Origin: Candidatus Odinarchaeota archaeon
GTDB lineage: Archaea; Asgardarchaeota; Odinarchaeia; Odinarchaeales; Odinarchaeaceae
DNA: 32,000 nt
Direction of reading: 5' to 3'
Assembly: GCA_016839265.1 (NCBI GenBank)
Contig: JAEOUO010000004.1
Location: 1 to 32,000, forward strand
Position numbers and translations under genes: made by a program. Below are positions 26,801 through 32,000 of this stretch, piece by piece. Numbering within the stretch: position 1 is the first letter of the stretch; every line of letters starts with the position of its first letter. The notes beneath the pieces are model-generated. The model had not been told where the DNA came from, did no database searches, and saw only the letters and a list, made by a program, of their open reading frames with translations.

Positions 26801-27252
26801 AGAGAAAAAGCAATAAAGAAGAGTTTTCCACGAACATAGACCAGATAAAAGACATAGTTTTGCATGGAATAGACAAGACAATAGTAGATGATGTGAAAAA
26901 GTTTATTCCAGAAAATTATGATAATAGAGTGATTGAAATTAAAGCTTCGAAGAGTATTGAGGTTAAAGTTGATTTGCACGGTAAATTTAAGTTGGTAAGT
27001 GGTGAAGAAGAAGTTGAATTCTCTACTTTAGAGGAGGCTGAATATGCTAGATATATGTTGATGAGAGGTAAAGAGAGGATGGTAATTCCAAGAGATACGC
27101 AAATTTTACGTGATGTTCTTGTTAAGTTTAAGAAATTGGATAAGGCGATTAAAAATAGGATCAATGAATATTTGAAACAATTAGTGAGTAAGGAGAAAAA
27201 ACGGAAATTAATAGAAGCTGAATTATATAGGAAGATCTGGGCTGCTTTATAG
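23839..27252 (+). CDS. Type IIG restriction-modification enzyme (nuclease + N6-adenine MTase + TRD)
   Basis: RPDII..AIEVKR and QALQY nuclease motifs; LGQYFT, ILDPACGAGTFL (motif I), NPPY (motif IV), GRLGLITSNSWL; C-terminal TRD; 1137 aa. Confidence 0.88.
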   Translation: MTFTLTEPTAASEIKELINQIIQEENLPLDSAKVELMDSRGHRPDIIIFDRLNKPICAIEVKRPFISPYQIELFEQALQYANTEGIRFFATFNFNTLVLWETFKEGVPIRDRRYKEYFTADIIDLHDLLQLSVKNNIKKGLREFLQDLVKLQVAKKTEEILPTLEFDKIFIDYLHSLLNSMKIPLVTELNKKLDIDPVFKNKLLEWLTTQGWDSTYIDVKGVIDVVARQYILLLLNKIMFYKILSSRYKEIRPPNYKLLSLPDELPTLKIPEDITDGGNLQRILKSFFEKVLLIDYETIYESDFLDEIKLPDPLVSPIRILVNEFDKYDFTKIDYEVLGNIFERLIPEKDRHLLGQYFTRSDVVDLIVASCVKNKNDVILDPACGAGTFLIRAYSRLKYLGAEGPHSSFLNKLWGIDIAKFPAHLTTINLAIKDLSERNNYPRVICSDFFKVSPGTKIYSPYFITEGLDKKNSRHELPSFNVVMTNPPYTRQEEMEEKLEEGYKNTVIELIAKETGMTLGKRSSIYAYFFLHGSVFLGDGGRLGLITSNSWLDVDYGKYLQEFFLKNFKIKYIIDSKVERFFEDADINTAITILEKCRNQEERDNNIVKFVELRKKLPEVLSYFGDHDTEYEKWTDKERWAAVDKFLAYLDKISGITINEEIGVRVYPKNQRELYEEGLEEGKYAGSKWGKYIKAPDIFFKILEKGKDLFIPLKDIADITGGIITGKNNFFYLRESQIRNFGIEEKFLIPVIKTPKELGKIYFTKKDLKYKLFFVTEERNNIKGTNALKYIEYGEKQGFNTNPTFKARKHWYQIPELKQAELLWIDLRGEKHICHLNVDNVPFEHNFYGINPKKINKELLCAYLNSTLSWLFIEVLGRSSLGEGAIRLVGQDLKNFPTILLKEGVPDSLKIQKIFDKLKHREIESVFKEVGANKPEEVSLEKVNQDVRELDKVIIGEILGLTDEEQLEVYRAVVDLVKSRIEKAKSVERKSNKEEFSTNIDQIKDIVLHGIDKTIVDDVKKFIPENYDNRVIEIKASKSIEVKVDLHGKFKLVSGEEEVEFSTLEEAEYARYMLMRGKERMVIPRDTQILRDVLVKFKKLDKAIKNRINEYLKQLVSKEKKRKLIEAELYRKIWAAL

Positions 27253-28143
27253 TATTTTGTTTAGTGCTTGTTTTAGTGTGTTTGTTTGTTGTGTGATGTT
27301 TTTCCAGGGGTTTGGTGTGTTTTGTAGGTGTTGGAATATGTTGTTTATGTTGTAGGTTTTAGCGTTTAGGTTTTTGTTTTCTAAGTCTTTCCATGTTATG
27401 GGTGTTGCGATGGGCGCTGTTTTTTTAGCGCGTAGGGAGTATGGTGCGACTGAGGTTTGAGCGTATGCGTTTCTGGTTGTGTCTATGAAGAGTCTGTTTT
27501 TTCTTTTTTCTTTTCGTTGTTCGACGGTGATTTTATCCGGGTTGTTTTTAGCTATGTTTTTAGCGATTTTCTGGGCGAATAGTCGTGTTTGCTCGAAGGT
27601 GTGTTCTCTTTCTATTGGGATGATTACGTGGACTCCTTTGGATCCGGTTGTCATAATAAAAGTGTTTAGTTCTAGCTTATCTAAGGTTTCTTTGATTAGG
27701 AGGGCGGTTTGCCGGACTGATTCGAAGTCTTCTGGTGTAGCTGGGTCTAGGTCGAATACTATTTTATCAGGGTGGTTTGGTTTATCGTATTTGGCGAGCC
27801 ATATGTGGGGTGTGATGCAGGCTTGCTCGGTGATGTATAGGAGGGTTTCCTTGTTTTGGCATAACAGGTATGTGGTGTCTCCTCCTGTTTTATTATCTAG
27901 CTTGATTTTTTCTATCCATGGGGGGAAGTATTCCGGAACTTCTTTTTGGAAGAAGCCTTCTTTGCTTATTCCATCGGGGAAGCGGTGCATTGTTAATGGT
28001 CGATCTTTTAAGTATGGTAGCATTAGATTCGCTATTTTTTCATAGTATTGTATTACTTGGAGTTTGGTGATTTTATCGTCCGGGTATAGTATTTTATCAG
28101 GGTTGCTGACTTGGATGACTTGTTTTCCTGCTTTAATCTGCAT
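27247..28143 (-). CDS. ligD: NHEJ LigD polymerase (AEP primase-polymerase) domain protein
   Basis: SNPDKILYP, RFPDGI..FFQK, PDKIVFDLDP (DxD), TTGSKGVH, VAPYSLRA. Confidence 0.9.
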   Translation of the reverse strand: MQIKAGKQVIQVSNPDKILYPDDKITKLQVIQYYEKIANLMLPYLKDRPLTMHRFPDGISKEGFFQKEVPEYFPPWIEKIKLDNKTGGDTTYLLCQNKETLLYITEQACITPHIWLAKYDKPNHPDKIVFDLDPATPEDFESVRQTALLIKETLDKLELNTFIMTTGSKGVHVIIPIEREHTFEQTRLFAQKIAKNIAKNNPDKITVEQRKEKRKNRLFIDTTRNAYAQTSVAPYSLRAKKTAPIATPITWKDLENKNLNAKTYNINNIFQHLQNTPNPWKNITQQTNTLKQALNKIL

Positions 28144-28145
28144 TT

Positions 28146-29150
28146 TTAAGCCTCTGGGATTTCTTTTACTACTGTGCGGGGGTCTTTGTCTCTTCTAACT
28201 CCGAGTAGACGTGGATGGCGTAGTTTACCGGTTTTAGTCCACTCTGTGAAGCCTACTTCTACTACGATTTCAGGTTTCACCCAGGTGACGTTTTTCTCCC
28301 CTGTTTTATCATCGGTGGCGGGGGTGTTTTGTTTTAATGCTTCCAGTTGCCTGGTTAACTGGATTAAGAGCGTGCGGTTGAATCCTGTTCCGACTTTTCC
28401 AGCGTAGATGAGTCTATCTTTATCATAGTATCCTACTAGTATCGCGCCTAATCCGATGCGTGAGCCTTTAGGCGGAGTGTAGCCGATGATCACGAACTCC
28501 TGTTCGTTAACGCATTTGAATTTCAACCAGTCTGTTGATCTTTTATGCTGATATTCGCTGTCAGCTCTTTTAGCGATTACTCCCTCCCATCCTTTTCTAC
28601 AGGCTTCCTTATAGTATTTTACGCCTTCCTTCCATATATGCTCGGTGTATCTTAACGGATCTTGGTAGGTTAAATGTTTTCTTAATAATTCTTTTCTTAA
28701 TGTTAATGGGAGTTTTTCGATAAGATAGTTTTCAATGTATATTAGGTCGAAGATGTAGTAGTAGACTTTTATCTTTGATTTTAAAGCTTCCTCCCTGTTT
28801 TTTATTCCGATTCTTTCCTGTAGTTTGGAGAAACTGGTGTTGTCGCCTTGGAAGGCTACGATTTCACCGTCTATGATGAAGTCGGGGGTTTTCTGTTTTT
28901 CTAAGGCTTCAACGATCTCCGGGTAGGTGTCGCTGATGTCTTTTCTATTTCTGGATAATAGTTTGACGTGACCGTTTTTCTTAAATGCTAAGCATCGCTC
29001 TCCGTCTAGTTTACGCTCATATATCCAGTTTTCATCCGAGAACCGTTTACTGGTTAGGGTTGCTAGCATGGGGTCAACCCAGTCTGGTACGCTTGTTTTC
29101 ACGAGTAGATTCCTGTATTTCTGGTCTACTTCGTCTAGGATGGTGTTCAT
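28146..29150 (-). CDS. ligD: NHEJ LigD-type ATP-dependent DNA ligase domain protein
   Basis: PMLATL, ERKLDG (motif I), IDGEIV, YIFDL, EGVIAKR, WLKFK, GKVGTGF, LRHP. Confidence 0.92.
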   Translation of the reverse strand: MNTILDEVDQKYRNLLVKTSVPDWVDPMLATLTSKRFSDENWIYERKLDGERCLAFKKNGHVKLLSRNRKDISDTYPEIVEALEKQKTPDFIIDGEIVAFQGDNTSFSKLQERIGIKNREEALKSKIKVYYYIFDLIYIENYLIEKLPLTLRKELLRKHLTYQDPLRYTEHIWKEGVKYYKEACRKGWEGVIAKRADSEYQHKRSTDWLKFKCVNEQEFVIIGYTPPKGSRIGLGAILVGYYDKDRLIYAGKVGTGFNRTLLIQLTRQLEALKQNTPATDDKTGEKNVTWVKPEIVVEVGFTEWTKTGKLRHPRLLGVRRDKDPRTVVKEIPEA

Positions 29151-29274: not shown

Positions 29275-29307
29275 TCTAAATAAAAAACTCTATCGGTGAT
29301 GTTAAAA

Positions 29308-29493
29308 ATGGTTGTTGATCCTGTTTGCGGAATGGAGTTCTCTGAAAAGGATGCGAAGTTGAAGTACACTTACGGTGACAAAGTGTACTATTTCTGTTGT
29401 GAGATGTGTATGGAGAAATTCGTGAAGAACCCGGAAAAATACGGTGCCTCTAAACCTGTTAAACGCGGCGGATGCGGTTGCTGTAGTTTTTAA
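29308..29493 (+). CDS. YHS/TRASH metal-binding domain protein
   Basis: VDPVCGM, YYFCC..C..KF..NPEKY, Cys-rich tail GCGCC; GGTGAT SD before ATG 29308. Confidence 0.88.
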
Positions 29494-30089: not shown

Positions 30090-30159
30090 TTGAGATACCC
30101 TTTAATATTCAATAGTTTAATGCTTTTTATATAAAATACAATTATAGGAGTGTTTGTTT

Positions 30160-30366
30160 ATGTCTGATATTGGTGAGAGTCTTAATAAGCTTGGTTTGAA
30201 GGTGCCTGAGCTTGTTTTAGCTATTTTAGCGATTATCTTTGGTGTGCTTATTATCGTATATCCGTTTTTGATCGCTTGGTTTATTGGATTGTTTTTGATT
30301 ATTATGGGTGTGCTGCTTTTGATTAGGTATTTGGAGCGTGAGTTGAAATCCGGCGGCTCTAGTTGA
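30160..30366 (+). CDS. Small two-TM membrane protein
   Basis: AGGAG SD; two hydrophobic helices; followed by an oligo-T tract. Confidence 0.7.
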   Translation: MSDIGESLNKLGLKVPELVLAILAIIFGVLIIVYPFLIAWFIGLFLIIMGVLLLIRYLERELKSGGSS

Positions 30367-30370
30367 TTTA

Positions 30371-30400
30371 TCTTTTTTTCTTTTTGTTTTTTATATTTTT
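30371..30400 (+). terminator. Oligo-T terminator
   Basis: TTTATCTTTTTTTCTTTTTGTTTTTTATATTTTT tract directly after the stop at 30366. Confidence 0.5.
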
Positions 30401-30421
30401 TAATAATGTTTTTATAGTTGA

Positions 30422-30438
30422 ATATAACATTGTTATAT
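30422..30438. promoter_or_regulatory. Perfect 8-1-8 palindrome at the start of the tusA-dsrE-iscS-like operon
   Basis: ATATAACA-T-TGTTATAT, lying between TTTTTATA (~30409-30416) and the ATG at 30437. Confidence 0.45.
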
Positions 30439-30682
30439 GATGATTATGCGTGAAGATAAATCCACCCTTAAAATCGACTGCACTGGTTTATATTGTCCTC
30501 AACCTGTTTTCATAACTAGAACAACTTTGGATGAAATGGCTTCCGGGGAGATTCTAGAAGTGTTAGCTGATGATCCTGCAGCTGAATCCGATATTAAAGC
30601 CTTAGTTGAAGCTTTAGGCCATGAGCTTTTATCTTTTAGTAAAGAGGGTGGTGTTTTAAAGTTTCTTATTCGAAAGAGGTGA
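30437..30682 (+). CDS. tusA: TusA/SirA-family sulfur carrier
   Basis: IDCTGLYCPQP, GEILEVLADDP.AESDI, FLIRK. Confidence 0.9.
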   Translation: MMIMREDKSTLKIDCTGLYCPQPVFITRTTLDEMASGEILEVLADDPAAESDIKALVEALGHELLSFSKEGGVLKFLIRKR

Positions 30683-30689
30683 TTGAACT

Positions 30690-31058
30690 ATGAGTGGTGT
30701 TAAACATATTTTATACGTGCAGACGAGTGGACCTGAAAATCCTGAGCGTCTTTACGCTCCGTTTATTTTAGCGTCAACTGCTAGAGCTATGGGTTATAAC
30801 GCTACCATCTATTTTCTGATTAAAGGAGTTGAAACTGTTAAGAAAGGTGTAGCTGAGAGAATTAAGCTGGGGAGTTTTCCATCTCTTAGAGAAGTCATGG
30901 ATCAAGCTATTAAACTAGGGGTTAAAATTCAAGTCTGCGAGCAATCTTGTGCTCTTTTAGGTATTCCTAGAGGTGAATTTATACCTGAAGCGGAGATTGT
31001 GGGCGCTGCTACTTTGAATAAGCTTTGCTTGGAGGCTGATGCAGCGCTGTATTTCTAA
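30690..31058 (+). CDS. DsrE/DsrF-like family protein
   Basis: APFILASTARAMG, IYFLIKGV, GVKIQVCEQSC, IVGAATL; GAGGTGA SD overlapping the tusA stop. Confidence 0.85.
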   Translation: MSGVKHILYVQTSGPENPERLYAPFILASTARAMGYNATIYFLIKGVETVKKGVAERIKLGSFPSLREVMDQAIKLGVKIQVCEQSCALLGIPRGEFIPEAEIVGAATLNKLCLEADAALYF

Positions 31059-31079
31059 AAATATATATTGTTGATTTAT

Positions 31080-32000
31080 ATGAGTAGGGTTTACTTAGAT
31101 TACGCTGGAGCCTGTCCTGTAGATGAACGGGTTTTAGAAGCTATGAAGCCTTTTATTCTTAAACCAGGGAATCCTTTAGCCCTCCATGAGGAGGGGCAGA
31201 TTGCTAAGCGTGGAATTGAGGAAGCCCGTCAGTATATCGCTCATCTTATTAACGCGGATAACCCGGATGGTGTGGTTTTCACTAGCGGGGCGACTGAATC
31301 TAATAATCTGGCGATTATAGGTATGGGTGAGCGTTTAAAAAGTAAAGGCAATCATATTATCACCTCTAACATCGAGCATATCTCGGTTATTAACTCTTTG
31401 AAGAAACTTGAGAAAAACGGGTTCGAAGTAACAAGGATACCGGTAGACGGAGACGGGGTTATTCGACTTGATTTACTTGAGGAAGCTGTTAGAAATGATA
31501 CCGTGTTGATTACGATTCAAGCAGCTAACTCGGAGATCGGCGTTATTCAGCCTTTAGAAAAGATAGGTGAAATAGCTCGGAGGCATGGGGTGGTTTTTCA
31601 CTGTGATGCGACGGCTGGTTTAGGTCAAATGACTATAGACGTGAAGAAAGCGAATATAAGCTTGCTTACGATGTCTGCTAACAGTATTTATGGTCCTCAA
31701 GGAGTTGGTGCTTTATACTTAGCCTCTAATATCCGTCCGATTCCATTGATTTTAGGCGGAGGCCAGCAGCGGGGTTTCAGATCTGGAACGGAGAATGTGG
31801 CAGGTATTATCGGTATGGGAGAGGCAGCTCGCCTAGCAGCGGTTGAGATGAGAGATGACTGGAAGCGGCTTAAAGTTTTCAGAGATCGTGTAATAAAGGA
31901 GATTCCTGAAAGAGTTAGAGATGTTCATCTTAACGGGCATCCTGTTAAAAGGACGCCTAACAACGTGAATTTTCGAATAGATTATGTGGAAGGGGAGTCG
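31080..32000 (+). CDS. iscS: IscS/NifS-like class V PLP-fold protein lacking the Schiff-base lysine (partial, runs off the window; not in the ORF track)
   Basis: MSRVYLDYAGACPVD, FTSGATESNN, IEHFSV, HCDATAG, SANSIYGPQGVGALY, GGGQQRGFRSGTEN; open to the window end (..YVEGES). Confidence 0.88.
   Translation, partial: MSRVYLDYAGACPVDERVLEAMKPFILKPGNPLALHEEGQIAKRGIEEARQYIAHLINADNPDGVVFTSGATESNNLAIIGMGERLKSKGNHIITSNIEHISVINSLKKLEKNGFEVTRIPVDGDGVIRLDLLEEAVRNDTVLITIQAANSEIGVIQPLEKIGEIARRHGVVFHCDATAGLGQMTIDVKKANISLLTMSANSIYGPQGVGALYLASNIRPIPLILGGGQQRGFRSGTENVAGIIGMGEAARLAAVEMRDDWKRLKVFRDRVIKEIPERVRDVHLNGHPVKRTPNNVNFRIDYVEGES

Follow-up and report, generated by a model that had tools for sequence, protein, structure and literature searches.

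How iron-sulfur (Fe-S) clusters obtain their sulfur where no cysteine desulfurase is at work is an open question for many anaerobic archaea, for the IscS-IscU pair of Archaeoglobus fulgidus, whose sulfur source has been stated to be open (PMC8918507), and for minimal SUF systems (PMC12192291). The same question is raised by the locus analysed here, which lies at the end of a stretch of 32,000 nucleotides (the window, positions 1 to 32000 of contig C4) from the 1.35-Mb, 36% GC, 97% complete genome of a Candidatus Odinarchaeota archaeon assembled in six contigs. The last 1.6 kb of the window is taken up by three closely packed genes on the plus strand, namely tusA and dsrE, for two sulfur carriers, and the start of a gene for an IscS-like protein, here called IscS*, in which the lysine that binds pyridoxal 5'-phosphate (PLP) is replaced. 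A preliminary description of these genes, made from the sequence alone, had proposed that sulfur would run in reverse, from DsrE and TusA to the cysteine of an IscS that could not draw sulfur from cysteine. In this work we report that tusA, with or without dsrE, is linked specifically to lysine-less IscS genes, near-perfectly and across phyla.

The linkage was followed in contig look-ups and in a wider scan. The look-ups covered eight members of the lysine-less clade from seven lineages (two more Odinarchaeal lines, a Helarchaeote, Ferroglobus, a Bathyarchaeon, a Hadarchaeon, a Heimdallarchaeon and Deferrimicrobium), and the gene calls placed tusA directly upstream of iscS* in 8/8, dsrE between the two in 6/8 and iscU downstream in 7/8. 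For the scan, small hidden Markov models (HMMs) built from the cassette proteins were run on every open reading frame (ORF) of all fetched loci; tusA was found adjacent to 40 out of 41 lysine-less IscS-like genes, dsrE to 21 and iscU to 36, and upstream of the sole lysine-less gene without tusA no more than 29 nt of sequence are available. The control set came from a scan of genome contigs with a single protein as query, which, one Odinarchaeal relative apart, gave mostly lysine-bearing bacterial IscS/NifS at 38-48% identity. Not one of the 86 lysine-bearing genes (71 with HK and 15 with SK or GK at the site) has tusA or dsrE beside it, a result that holds at a loose threshold too, and 57 of them have iscU. 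Tight linkage is present in Asgard archaea, Archaeoglobi (including A. fulgidus), Bathyarchaeia, Hadarchaeia and two bacteria; in A. fulgidus one copy reads tusA-dsrE-iscS-iscU, and a truncated dsrE is retained at the second copy. Lysine-bearing IscS paralogues in the cassette genomes of the Bathyarchaeon, the Hadarchaeon and an Actinomycetota member serve as controls within a genome: no tusA or dsrE lies within 3 kb of any of them, and two are accompanied by an iscU of their own. The lysine-less IscS of the same Actinomycetota metagenome-assembled genome (MAG), which reads AANQ, is nested among lysine-bearing bacterial sequences (support 0.88) and, judged by this placement, is an independent loss of the lysine; its gene order (Rrf2 regulator, lysine-less iscS, DsrE-like gene, tusA) differs from that of the cassette. 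Both look-ups and scan thus bear out the preliminary description in that tusA-dsrE ahead of iscS* is a conserved cassette and not an accident of one genome.

IscS* has the class-V aminotransferase fold (PF00266, 218.6 bits, 1.7e-64 for the 307-residue fragment in the window) and matches E. coli IscS 1P3W with an E value of 2.6e-90. Alignments to solved structures and to E. coli K-12 IscS put Asn201-Ser202 of the motif SANSIYGPQG at His205-Lys206 and Ala179 of DATAG in place of the Gln of DAxQ (E. coli Gln183), so that both replacements had been read correctly to the base. The likeness to A. fulgidus IscS that had been drawn from them is also upheld, since the best matches in the PDB are A. fulgidus IscS2 (4EB5/4HVK, E 3.8e-122), which shares the losses and reads SSNDIYGPKG and DATAS. 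A search among 5.8 billion proteins showed that 120/120 nearest homologues are without the His-Lys and the Gln and that all keep the Cys; the states recorded at the His-Lys site are ND (110), NS (5), NQ (3) and NE (3). NS and NQ are confined to the Odinarchaeal lineage (subclade support 0.94), and the motif is kept in relatives at 66-89% identity (89%, 86% and 76% among them). Ser202, which had been contrasted with the Asp of A. fulgidus, is on these alignments no special trait: it is the Odinarchaeal variant of a known clade-wide loss, usually to Asp, and not a new state.

All lysine-less IscS sequences but one from a bacterium fall into a single clan of an unrooted tree (support 0.999). The named archaeal sources include Odin-, Hel-, Hod-, Heimdall- and Promethearchaeota, Bathyarchaeota, Hadarchaea, Ferroglobus, Geoglobus and A. 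fulgidus, and the homologues also include a Deferrimicrobium bacterium. Over 43 sequences of the clade 61 columns are invariant, Thr72, His100 and Asp176 among them. We take these three sites to be PLP contacts in canonical IscS; if so, their invariance would fit the non-covalent pyridoxamine 5'-phosphate (PMP) of A. fulgidus IscS. With the SufS-like paralogues of the genome as the root, the tree placed this outgroup on the Odinarchaeal branch, which is probably a case of long-branch or composition attraction; nothing is deduced from it as to an ancestral lysine-less state. IscS* stays below all curated NCBIfam desulfurase cut-offs (NifS 420.9 < 530.75, IscS 398.2 < 643.2, PRK02948 289.4 < 304). 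The A. fulgidus protein has been reported to hold PMP non-covalently, to have no desulfurase activity and to lend its Cys to the [2Fe-2S] cluster of IscU (PMC8918507; PMC7585200); in the solved IscS-IscU complex this loop Cys provides the nascent [2Fe-2S] with its fourth ligand, a role known only for 4EB5. By sequence, IscS* is an orthologue of this desulfurase-dead protein and a member of the A. fulgidus-type lysine-less clade, and by homology it is expected to be without cysteine desulfurase activity; with the PLP lysine, the adjacent His and the Gln lost throughout the clade, a persulfide from cysteine should be out of its reach.

The window ends inside iscS*, ahead of the Cys loop. Contig C4 itself ends at 32222, and the 222 bases beyond the window encode the mobile loop STGASCAS with Cys326, the counterpart of E. 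coli Cys328, which is invariant in the clade. From C4:32222 the gene continues for 42 nt into contig C5, and a database protein 100% identical to IscS* has 394 aa. An independent assembly of a public run (L141) is identical to the tail of C4 over 2038/2038 bases and runs straight from the end of C4 into the start of C5, with a 2-nt overlap; the four genes therefore form an operon, tusA-dsrE-iscS*-iscU, on the plus strand with intergenic gaps of 7 nt (from the tusA stop to the start of dsrE), 21 and 27 nt. The active-site Cys and the iscU that the preliminary description had proposed to look for downstream are thus both in place. IscU, encoded at the very start of C5, scores 172.5 bits with PF01592 and lies above a curated cut-off (TIGR03419, 206.3 > 187.9), and its translation keeps the three ligand Cys and the Asp in VCGD, FGCG and HCS. 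In comparison with Odin RPA3 there is one extra A (C5:41-74, L141:2077-2110), and with it the iscU ATG, which lies across the stop of iscS* and is the start used in the nearest relative, is no longer in frame. The idea that this was an error of assembly where the contig ends was rejected, since the base is present in the independent assembly too; a GTG 27 nt past the iscS* stop is the most likely start of iscU and predicts a protein of 121 aa with all ligand motifs. The IscU proteins of the Helarchaeote (L095:7164-7967) and Deferrimicrobium (L100:3948-4736) cassettes have 262-267 aa, with a C-terminal extension that has no Odinarchaeal counterpart. No hscAB, fdx or iscA is present at the locus, leaving a two-gene IscS-like/IscU-like unit without accessory ISC genes, and the gene after iscU encodes a GPN-type ATPase (PF03029). 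The identity of the two assemblies and the presence of the motif in relatives also show that no Lys has been masked by a read or assembly error; together with the open 394-codon frame, the 61 invariant columns and the size of the clade, they make a pseudogene or a sequencing error hardly conceivable, and nothing was found to speak for either.

The TusA of the cassette matches PF01206 well above the cut-off (83.9 bits > 28.6, 7e-24) and aligns over the full length with E. coli TusA (1DCJ/3LVJ, E 6e-12), with Cys20 of the CPQP motif on Cys19; this Cys and the motif ADDPAA are invariant in 33 cassette TusAs. It falls below the cut-off of the NCBIfam TusA equivalog (65.1 < 78), and by these scores is a TusA-family carrier and not an equivalog of E. 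coli TusA. DsrE matches PF02635 with 64.9 bits (9e-18) and carries the motif VCEQSC, of which all cassette DsrEs listed share the first Cys but not the second. Among solved structures it comes closest to 3MC3 (SSO1125, E 3.4e-17), the Cys of VCVQS being aligned, and SSO1125 has been classed as DsrE3A (PMC11094781); the match to NCBIfam DsrE2 is far below the cut-off (47 < 210). On the strength of this nearest structure we assign the protein as a DsrE3-like carrier. In vitro, DsrE3-type proteins take up sulfane sulfur from polysulfide and donate it to TusA far better than they receive it in reverse (PMC11094781). When the hot-spot residues of the E. coli TusA-IscS complex (PMC2854127) were mapped onto the cassette sequences, Arg27 of TusA, and Arg55, an acidic residue at 52 and Arg/Lys at 237 of IscS, were found to be kept. 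In Odinarchaeal sequences only, an Arg at IscS position 49 goes with an Asp at TusA position 31, possibly a charge swap. Complex prediction of IscS* with TusA gave a score of 0.00 in both runs; controls were not run, and the result has no bearing either way.

Table 1. Positions of the features discussed (numbers without a prefix refer to the window, C4:1-32000)
Feature	Position	Strand	Description
LigD-type primase-polymerase and ATP-dependent DNA ligase	27247-29150	-	298 aa and 334 aa, adjoining
YHS-domain protein gene	29296..29493	+	65 aa, Cys-rich, metal-binding; PF04945, 52.8 bits
Small membrane protein gene	30154..30366	+	70 aa, two helices; ORF; weak DUF308 match
AT-rich intergenic stretch upstream of tusA	30367..30436	+	Presumed operon promoter on reading of the sequence; TATA-like TTTTATAG ~25 nt before ATG
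tusA	30437..30682	+	81 aa, TusA-family sulfur carrier, Cys20 in CPQP; Pfam TusA
dsrE	30690..31058	+	122 aa, DsrE3-like sulfur carrier, Cys in VCEQS; PF02635
iscS*, part in the window	31080..32000	+	First 307 of 394 codons, ATG start at 31080; PF00266
DATAG of iscS*	31605..31619	+	Ala179 at the conserved Gln site (E. coli Gln183)
Asn201-Ser202 of iscS*	31680..31685	+	AAC AGT; PLP Schiff-base site, E. coli His205/Lys206 positions
Cys326 codon of iscS*	C4:32055-32057	+	Mobile loop
iscU	C5:72-437	+	PF01592
SufS-like X1	C1:469990-471285		Lysine-bearing
SufS-like X2	C1:486653-487903		Lysine replaced
Sulfur-carrier island	C1:1034197-1035739	both	Second TusA and three DsrE-family genes

Persulfide passing among the IscS, TusA and DsrE-fold families is established chemistry. 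We regard it as reasonably probable that the operon encodes a carrier-fed Fe-S assembly cassette, in which sulfur would go from DsrE to TusA and on to the Cys of IscS* and IscU, the two carriers making up for the chemistry that IscS* has lost; the transfers, their direction, the contacts and the ultimate source of the sulfur are what we infer. In such a cassette the conserved Cys of the DsrE3-like protein would take up sulfane sulfur, be it from polysulfide, a low-molecular-weight persulfide or the persulfide of another enzyme; the sulfur would pass to Cys20 of TusA, which would hand it to Cys326 of IscS* or straight to IscU, and the cluster would be built at the IscS*-IscU interface. DsrE is placed before TusA because DsrE3-type proteins prefer donation to TusA (PMC11094781), and to this extent the direction of the reverse relay put forward in the preliminary description fits published data.

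Several points weigh against a carrier-fed cassette. Contact of TusA or DsrE with IscS* or IscU, and sulfur transfer from TusA to the Cys of IscS* or to IscU, are reached by inference. About half of the cassettes are without dsrE, and therefore DsrE would be dispensable for the core function. The Trp45-Phe58 stacking pair of the E. coli IscS-TusA interface is lost in the cassette proteins and the charge of TusA Arg31 is reversed, with Asp or Glu in 41/42 cassettes; as the E. coli-type interface is only partly kept, TusA, if it is a binder of IscS*, may bind differently. Apart from a single independent case, the lysine-less clade is in essence one lineage, so that 40/41 measures conserved synteny among kin and not 40 independent events; the linkage draws independent support from the range of phyla that it spans, from the second loss and from the controls within genomes. 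Finally, with a lysine-bearing SufS-like protein (X1) in this genome and a normal IscS/NifS in most of the cassette genomes sampled, the sulfur could still be cysteine-derived.

This last point amounts to an explanation of its own, with the same cassette and cysteine as the ultimate source: a lysine-bearing desulfurase (X1 here, a normal IscS/NifS elsewhere) would load TusA and DsrE, which would feed IscS*-IscU, in what would be the ordinary desulfurase-to-TusA flow with a dead IscS as the receiver. The genome contains one IscU, one SufB, two TusA, four DsrE-family and two SufS-like genes. X1 is a candidate for the further Lys-containing desulfurase that the preliminary description had proposed to search for, and keeps both the GHK and a Cys loop (RAGYHCA); an IscS with SAHK or SSHK is present in each of the Bathyarchaeal, Hadarchaeal and Actinomycetota cassette genomes, and E. 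coli TusA is known to be loaded by a desulfurase (PMC2854127). However, X1 scores below the SufS cut-off (366 < 475) and stands alone among unrelated neighbours, unlinked to the cassette, the Deferrimicrobium MAG has no lysine-bearing class-V protein at E <= 1e-30, and the lysine-bearing paralogues are without tusA and have their own iscU, which suggests two separate systems and not one chain. We consider a cysteine source by this route unlikely. The term cysteine-independent, used in the preliminary description, almost certainly applies to the IscS* protein itself but is not carried over to the organism, given X1. The second SufS-like protein, X2, is another dead-looking desulfurase, with FSSCIG in place of GHK and its Cys loop (RSGMQCS) kept; other lysine-less SufS-like genes were seen in the Deferrimicrobium MAG (HGNG), the Actinomycetota MAG (GHAL) and Odin RPA3 (L145, L148, L155).

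The clusters of IscS*-IscU might instead be made from free sulfide, as has been proposed in the literature for A. fulgidus IscS (PMC8918507), with TusA and DsrE serving in sulfane-sulfur buffering or detoxification, in the regulation of assembly, or in the removal of sulfur to thiolation pathways, the last being the canonical direction from IscS to TusA to a TusD-like protein. Free sulfide is able to support minimal SUF systems (PMC12192291), and both the cassettes without DsrE and the partial loss of the E. coli-type TusA interface would be in keeping with such a scheme. Carriers unrelated to the lost chemistry are nevertheless hard to reconcile with a tight, same-strand linkage that is specific to lysine-less IscS across phyla, and with the acquisition of the same partners at the independent lysine loss; flow outwards would need a persulfide that IscS* cannot make, and the in vitro preference is for transfer from DsrE3 to TusA. 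This makes free sulfide an improbable source in our view. It is very improbable indeed that IscS* is still an enzyme, with PLP or PMP bound non-covalently and Ser, Asp or Gln at the lysine site, carrying out another reaction on a sulfur compound delivered by TusA or DsrE. The invariance of the presumed PLP contacts Thr72, His100 and Asp176 would agree with this, as would the binding of PMP or PLP by A. fulgidus IscS (PMC8918507); against it, A. fulgidus IscS is without desulfurase activity and its D199K variant, too, holds PMP and not PLP (PMC8918507), and the variation at the lysine site (D/E/S/Q) does not suggest a catalytic role for that residue.

Among known systems the closest is A. fulgidus IscS2-IscU (4EB5, 4EB7, 4HVK; D199K variant 4R5F), which belongs to the same clade, with ~53-54% identity to A. 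fulgidus cluster members. The two share the change of His to Asn, the loss of Lys, the change of Gln to Ala, the retained Cys loop, an iscU directly downstream and tusA-dsrE upstream; they differ in the residue at the lysine site (Asp199 there, Ser202 here, Gln in a sister group), in the number of copies of the pair (two there, a single one here) and in the YHS and small membrane-protein genes upstream, which are specific to the Odinarchaeal loci. The MIS system (MisS-MisU; Garcia et al. 2022), in the passages of PMC13066941 and PMC12192291 that describe it, has a similar two-gene IscS-like/IscU-like core in anaerobic archaea, with no chaperones, ferredoxin or A-type carrier; MisS is described there as a working cysteine desulfurase, whereas the catalytic Lys is absent from IscS*, and two sulfur-carrier genes join the operon here. 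The relays of E. coli (IscS-TusA, 3LVJ, and TusBCD/DsrEFH) have in common with the cassette the IscS fold, the CPxP Cys of TusA and a DsrE-fold carrier with an active Cys, but in E. coli the genes are unlinked and an active IscS sends the sulfur outwards to tRNA thiolation; IscS* would be unable to act as such a starting point, and of the interface residues only some are retained. In the DsrE3-TusA pairs of sulfur oxidisers (Metallosphaera cuprina DsrE3A/TusA and Hyphomicrobium DsrE3C/TusA) there is likewise a DsrE3 adjoining TusA, and the DsrE described here is nearest to the DsrE3A 3MC3; those pairs feed the dissimilatory sHdr complex (PMC11094781), whereas here the pair is joined to an Fe-S assembly module and there are no shdr genes near the cassette. 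Lysine-less IscS appears in the literature as A. fulgidus IscS and M. acetivorans IscS1. No paper on tusA or dsrE beside these genes was found in the literature covered, which does not take in Pagnier 2015, Marinoni 2012, Yamanaka 2013 and Garcia 2022. IscS* is a new member of a known clade of dead desulfurases, and the carrier-linked cassette is, as far as we have found, an undescribed variant of a minimal ISC system.

The linkage of tusA, with or without dsrE, provides two concrete candidate donors for lysine-less IscS-IscU and turns the question of the sulfur source into a simple matter of in vitro transfer and reconstitution, for which the structure of the core complex has already been solved. 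We would tentatively suggest, with less than even confidence, that lysine-less IscS-IscU may be a distinct and widespread carrier-fed Fe-S machine of anaerobes that uses sulfane sulfur and not cysteine, in which the dead desulfurase acts as persulfide acceptor and cluster ligand, and that this may be the sole IscU-based system of Odinarchaeia. If this were true, the sulfur source of A. fulgidus IscS-IscU would be settled, sulfur would have a third way into Fe-S biogenesis in addition to cysteine desulfuration and free sulfide, and lysine-less pairs would not be degenerate ISC systems. Since annotations routinely give "cysteine desulfurase" for lysine-less genes, metabolic reconstructions for Asgard and other archaea in which Fe-S sulfur is derived from cysteine on such labels are probably wrong.

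With regard to the surroundings of the cassette, the genes for the YHS protein and the 70-aa membrane protein lie upstream in all three Odinarchaeal loci (including L012 and L092); they are conserved in these loci only and are candidate, as yet unproven, members of the system. A gene for a TRASH-domain mini-protein is located 3' of iscU in the Hadarchaeon (L098:5546-5701), and as YHS and TRASH are both small metal-binding domains, a role of these mini-proteins in the hand-off of iron or another metal is conceivable. A trio of genes with DAO/Fer2_BFD, Pyr_redox_2 and DUF1667 domains adjoins the cassette in the Odinarchaeal loci, downstream on the opposite strand (L141:3779-6880, minus), and the same trio stands directly upstream on the same strand in the Bathyarchaeon (L097:383-3466). 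Near the cassette of A. fulgidus a second tusA is accompanied by a sulfite reductase of the NIR_SIR type (L140:5979-7503), and near that of the Heimdallarchaeon a fusion protein of the form Pyr_redox-rhodanese-TusA-rhodanese (L099:6451-8832). The nearest relative, at 89% identity, is a Candidatus Odinarchaeia MAG in which the gene order is unchanged. The primase-polymerase and ligase genes of the window constitute a bacterial-style end-joining pair that is kept in the relatives L012 and L092. Tens of bases are common to the end of C1 and the start of C4, to the end of C3 and the start of C6, and to the ends of C5 and C6, and the six contigs are probably joined through repeats.

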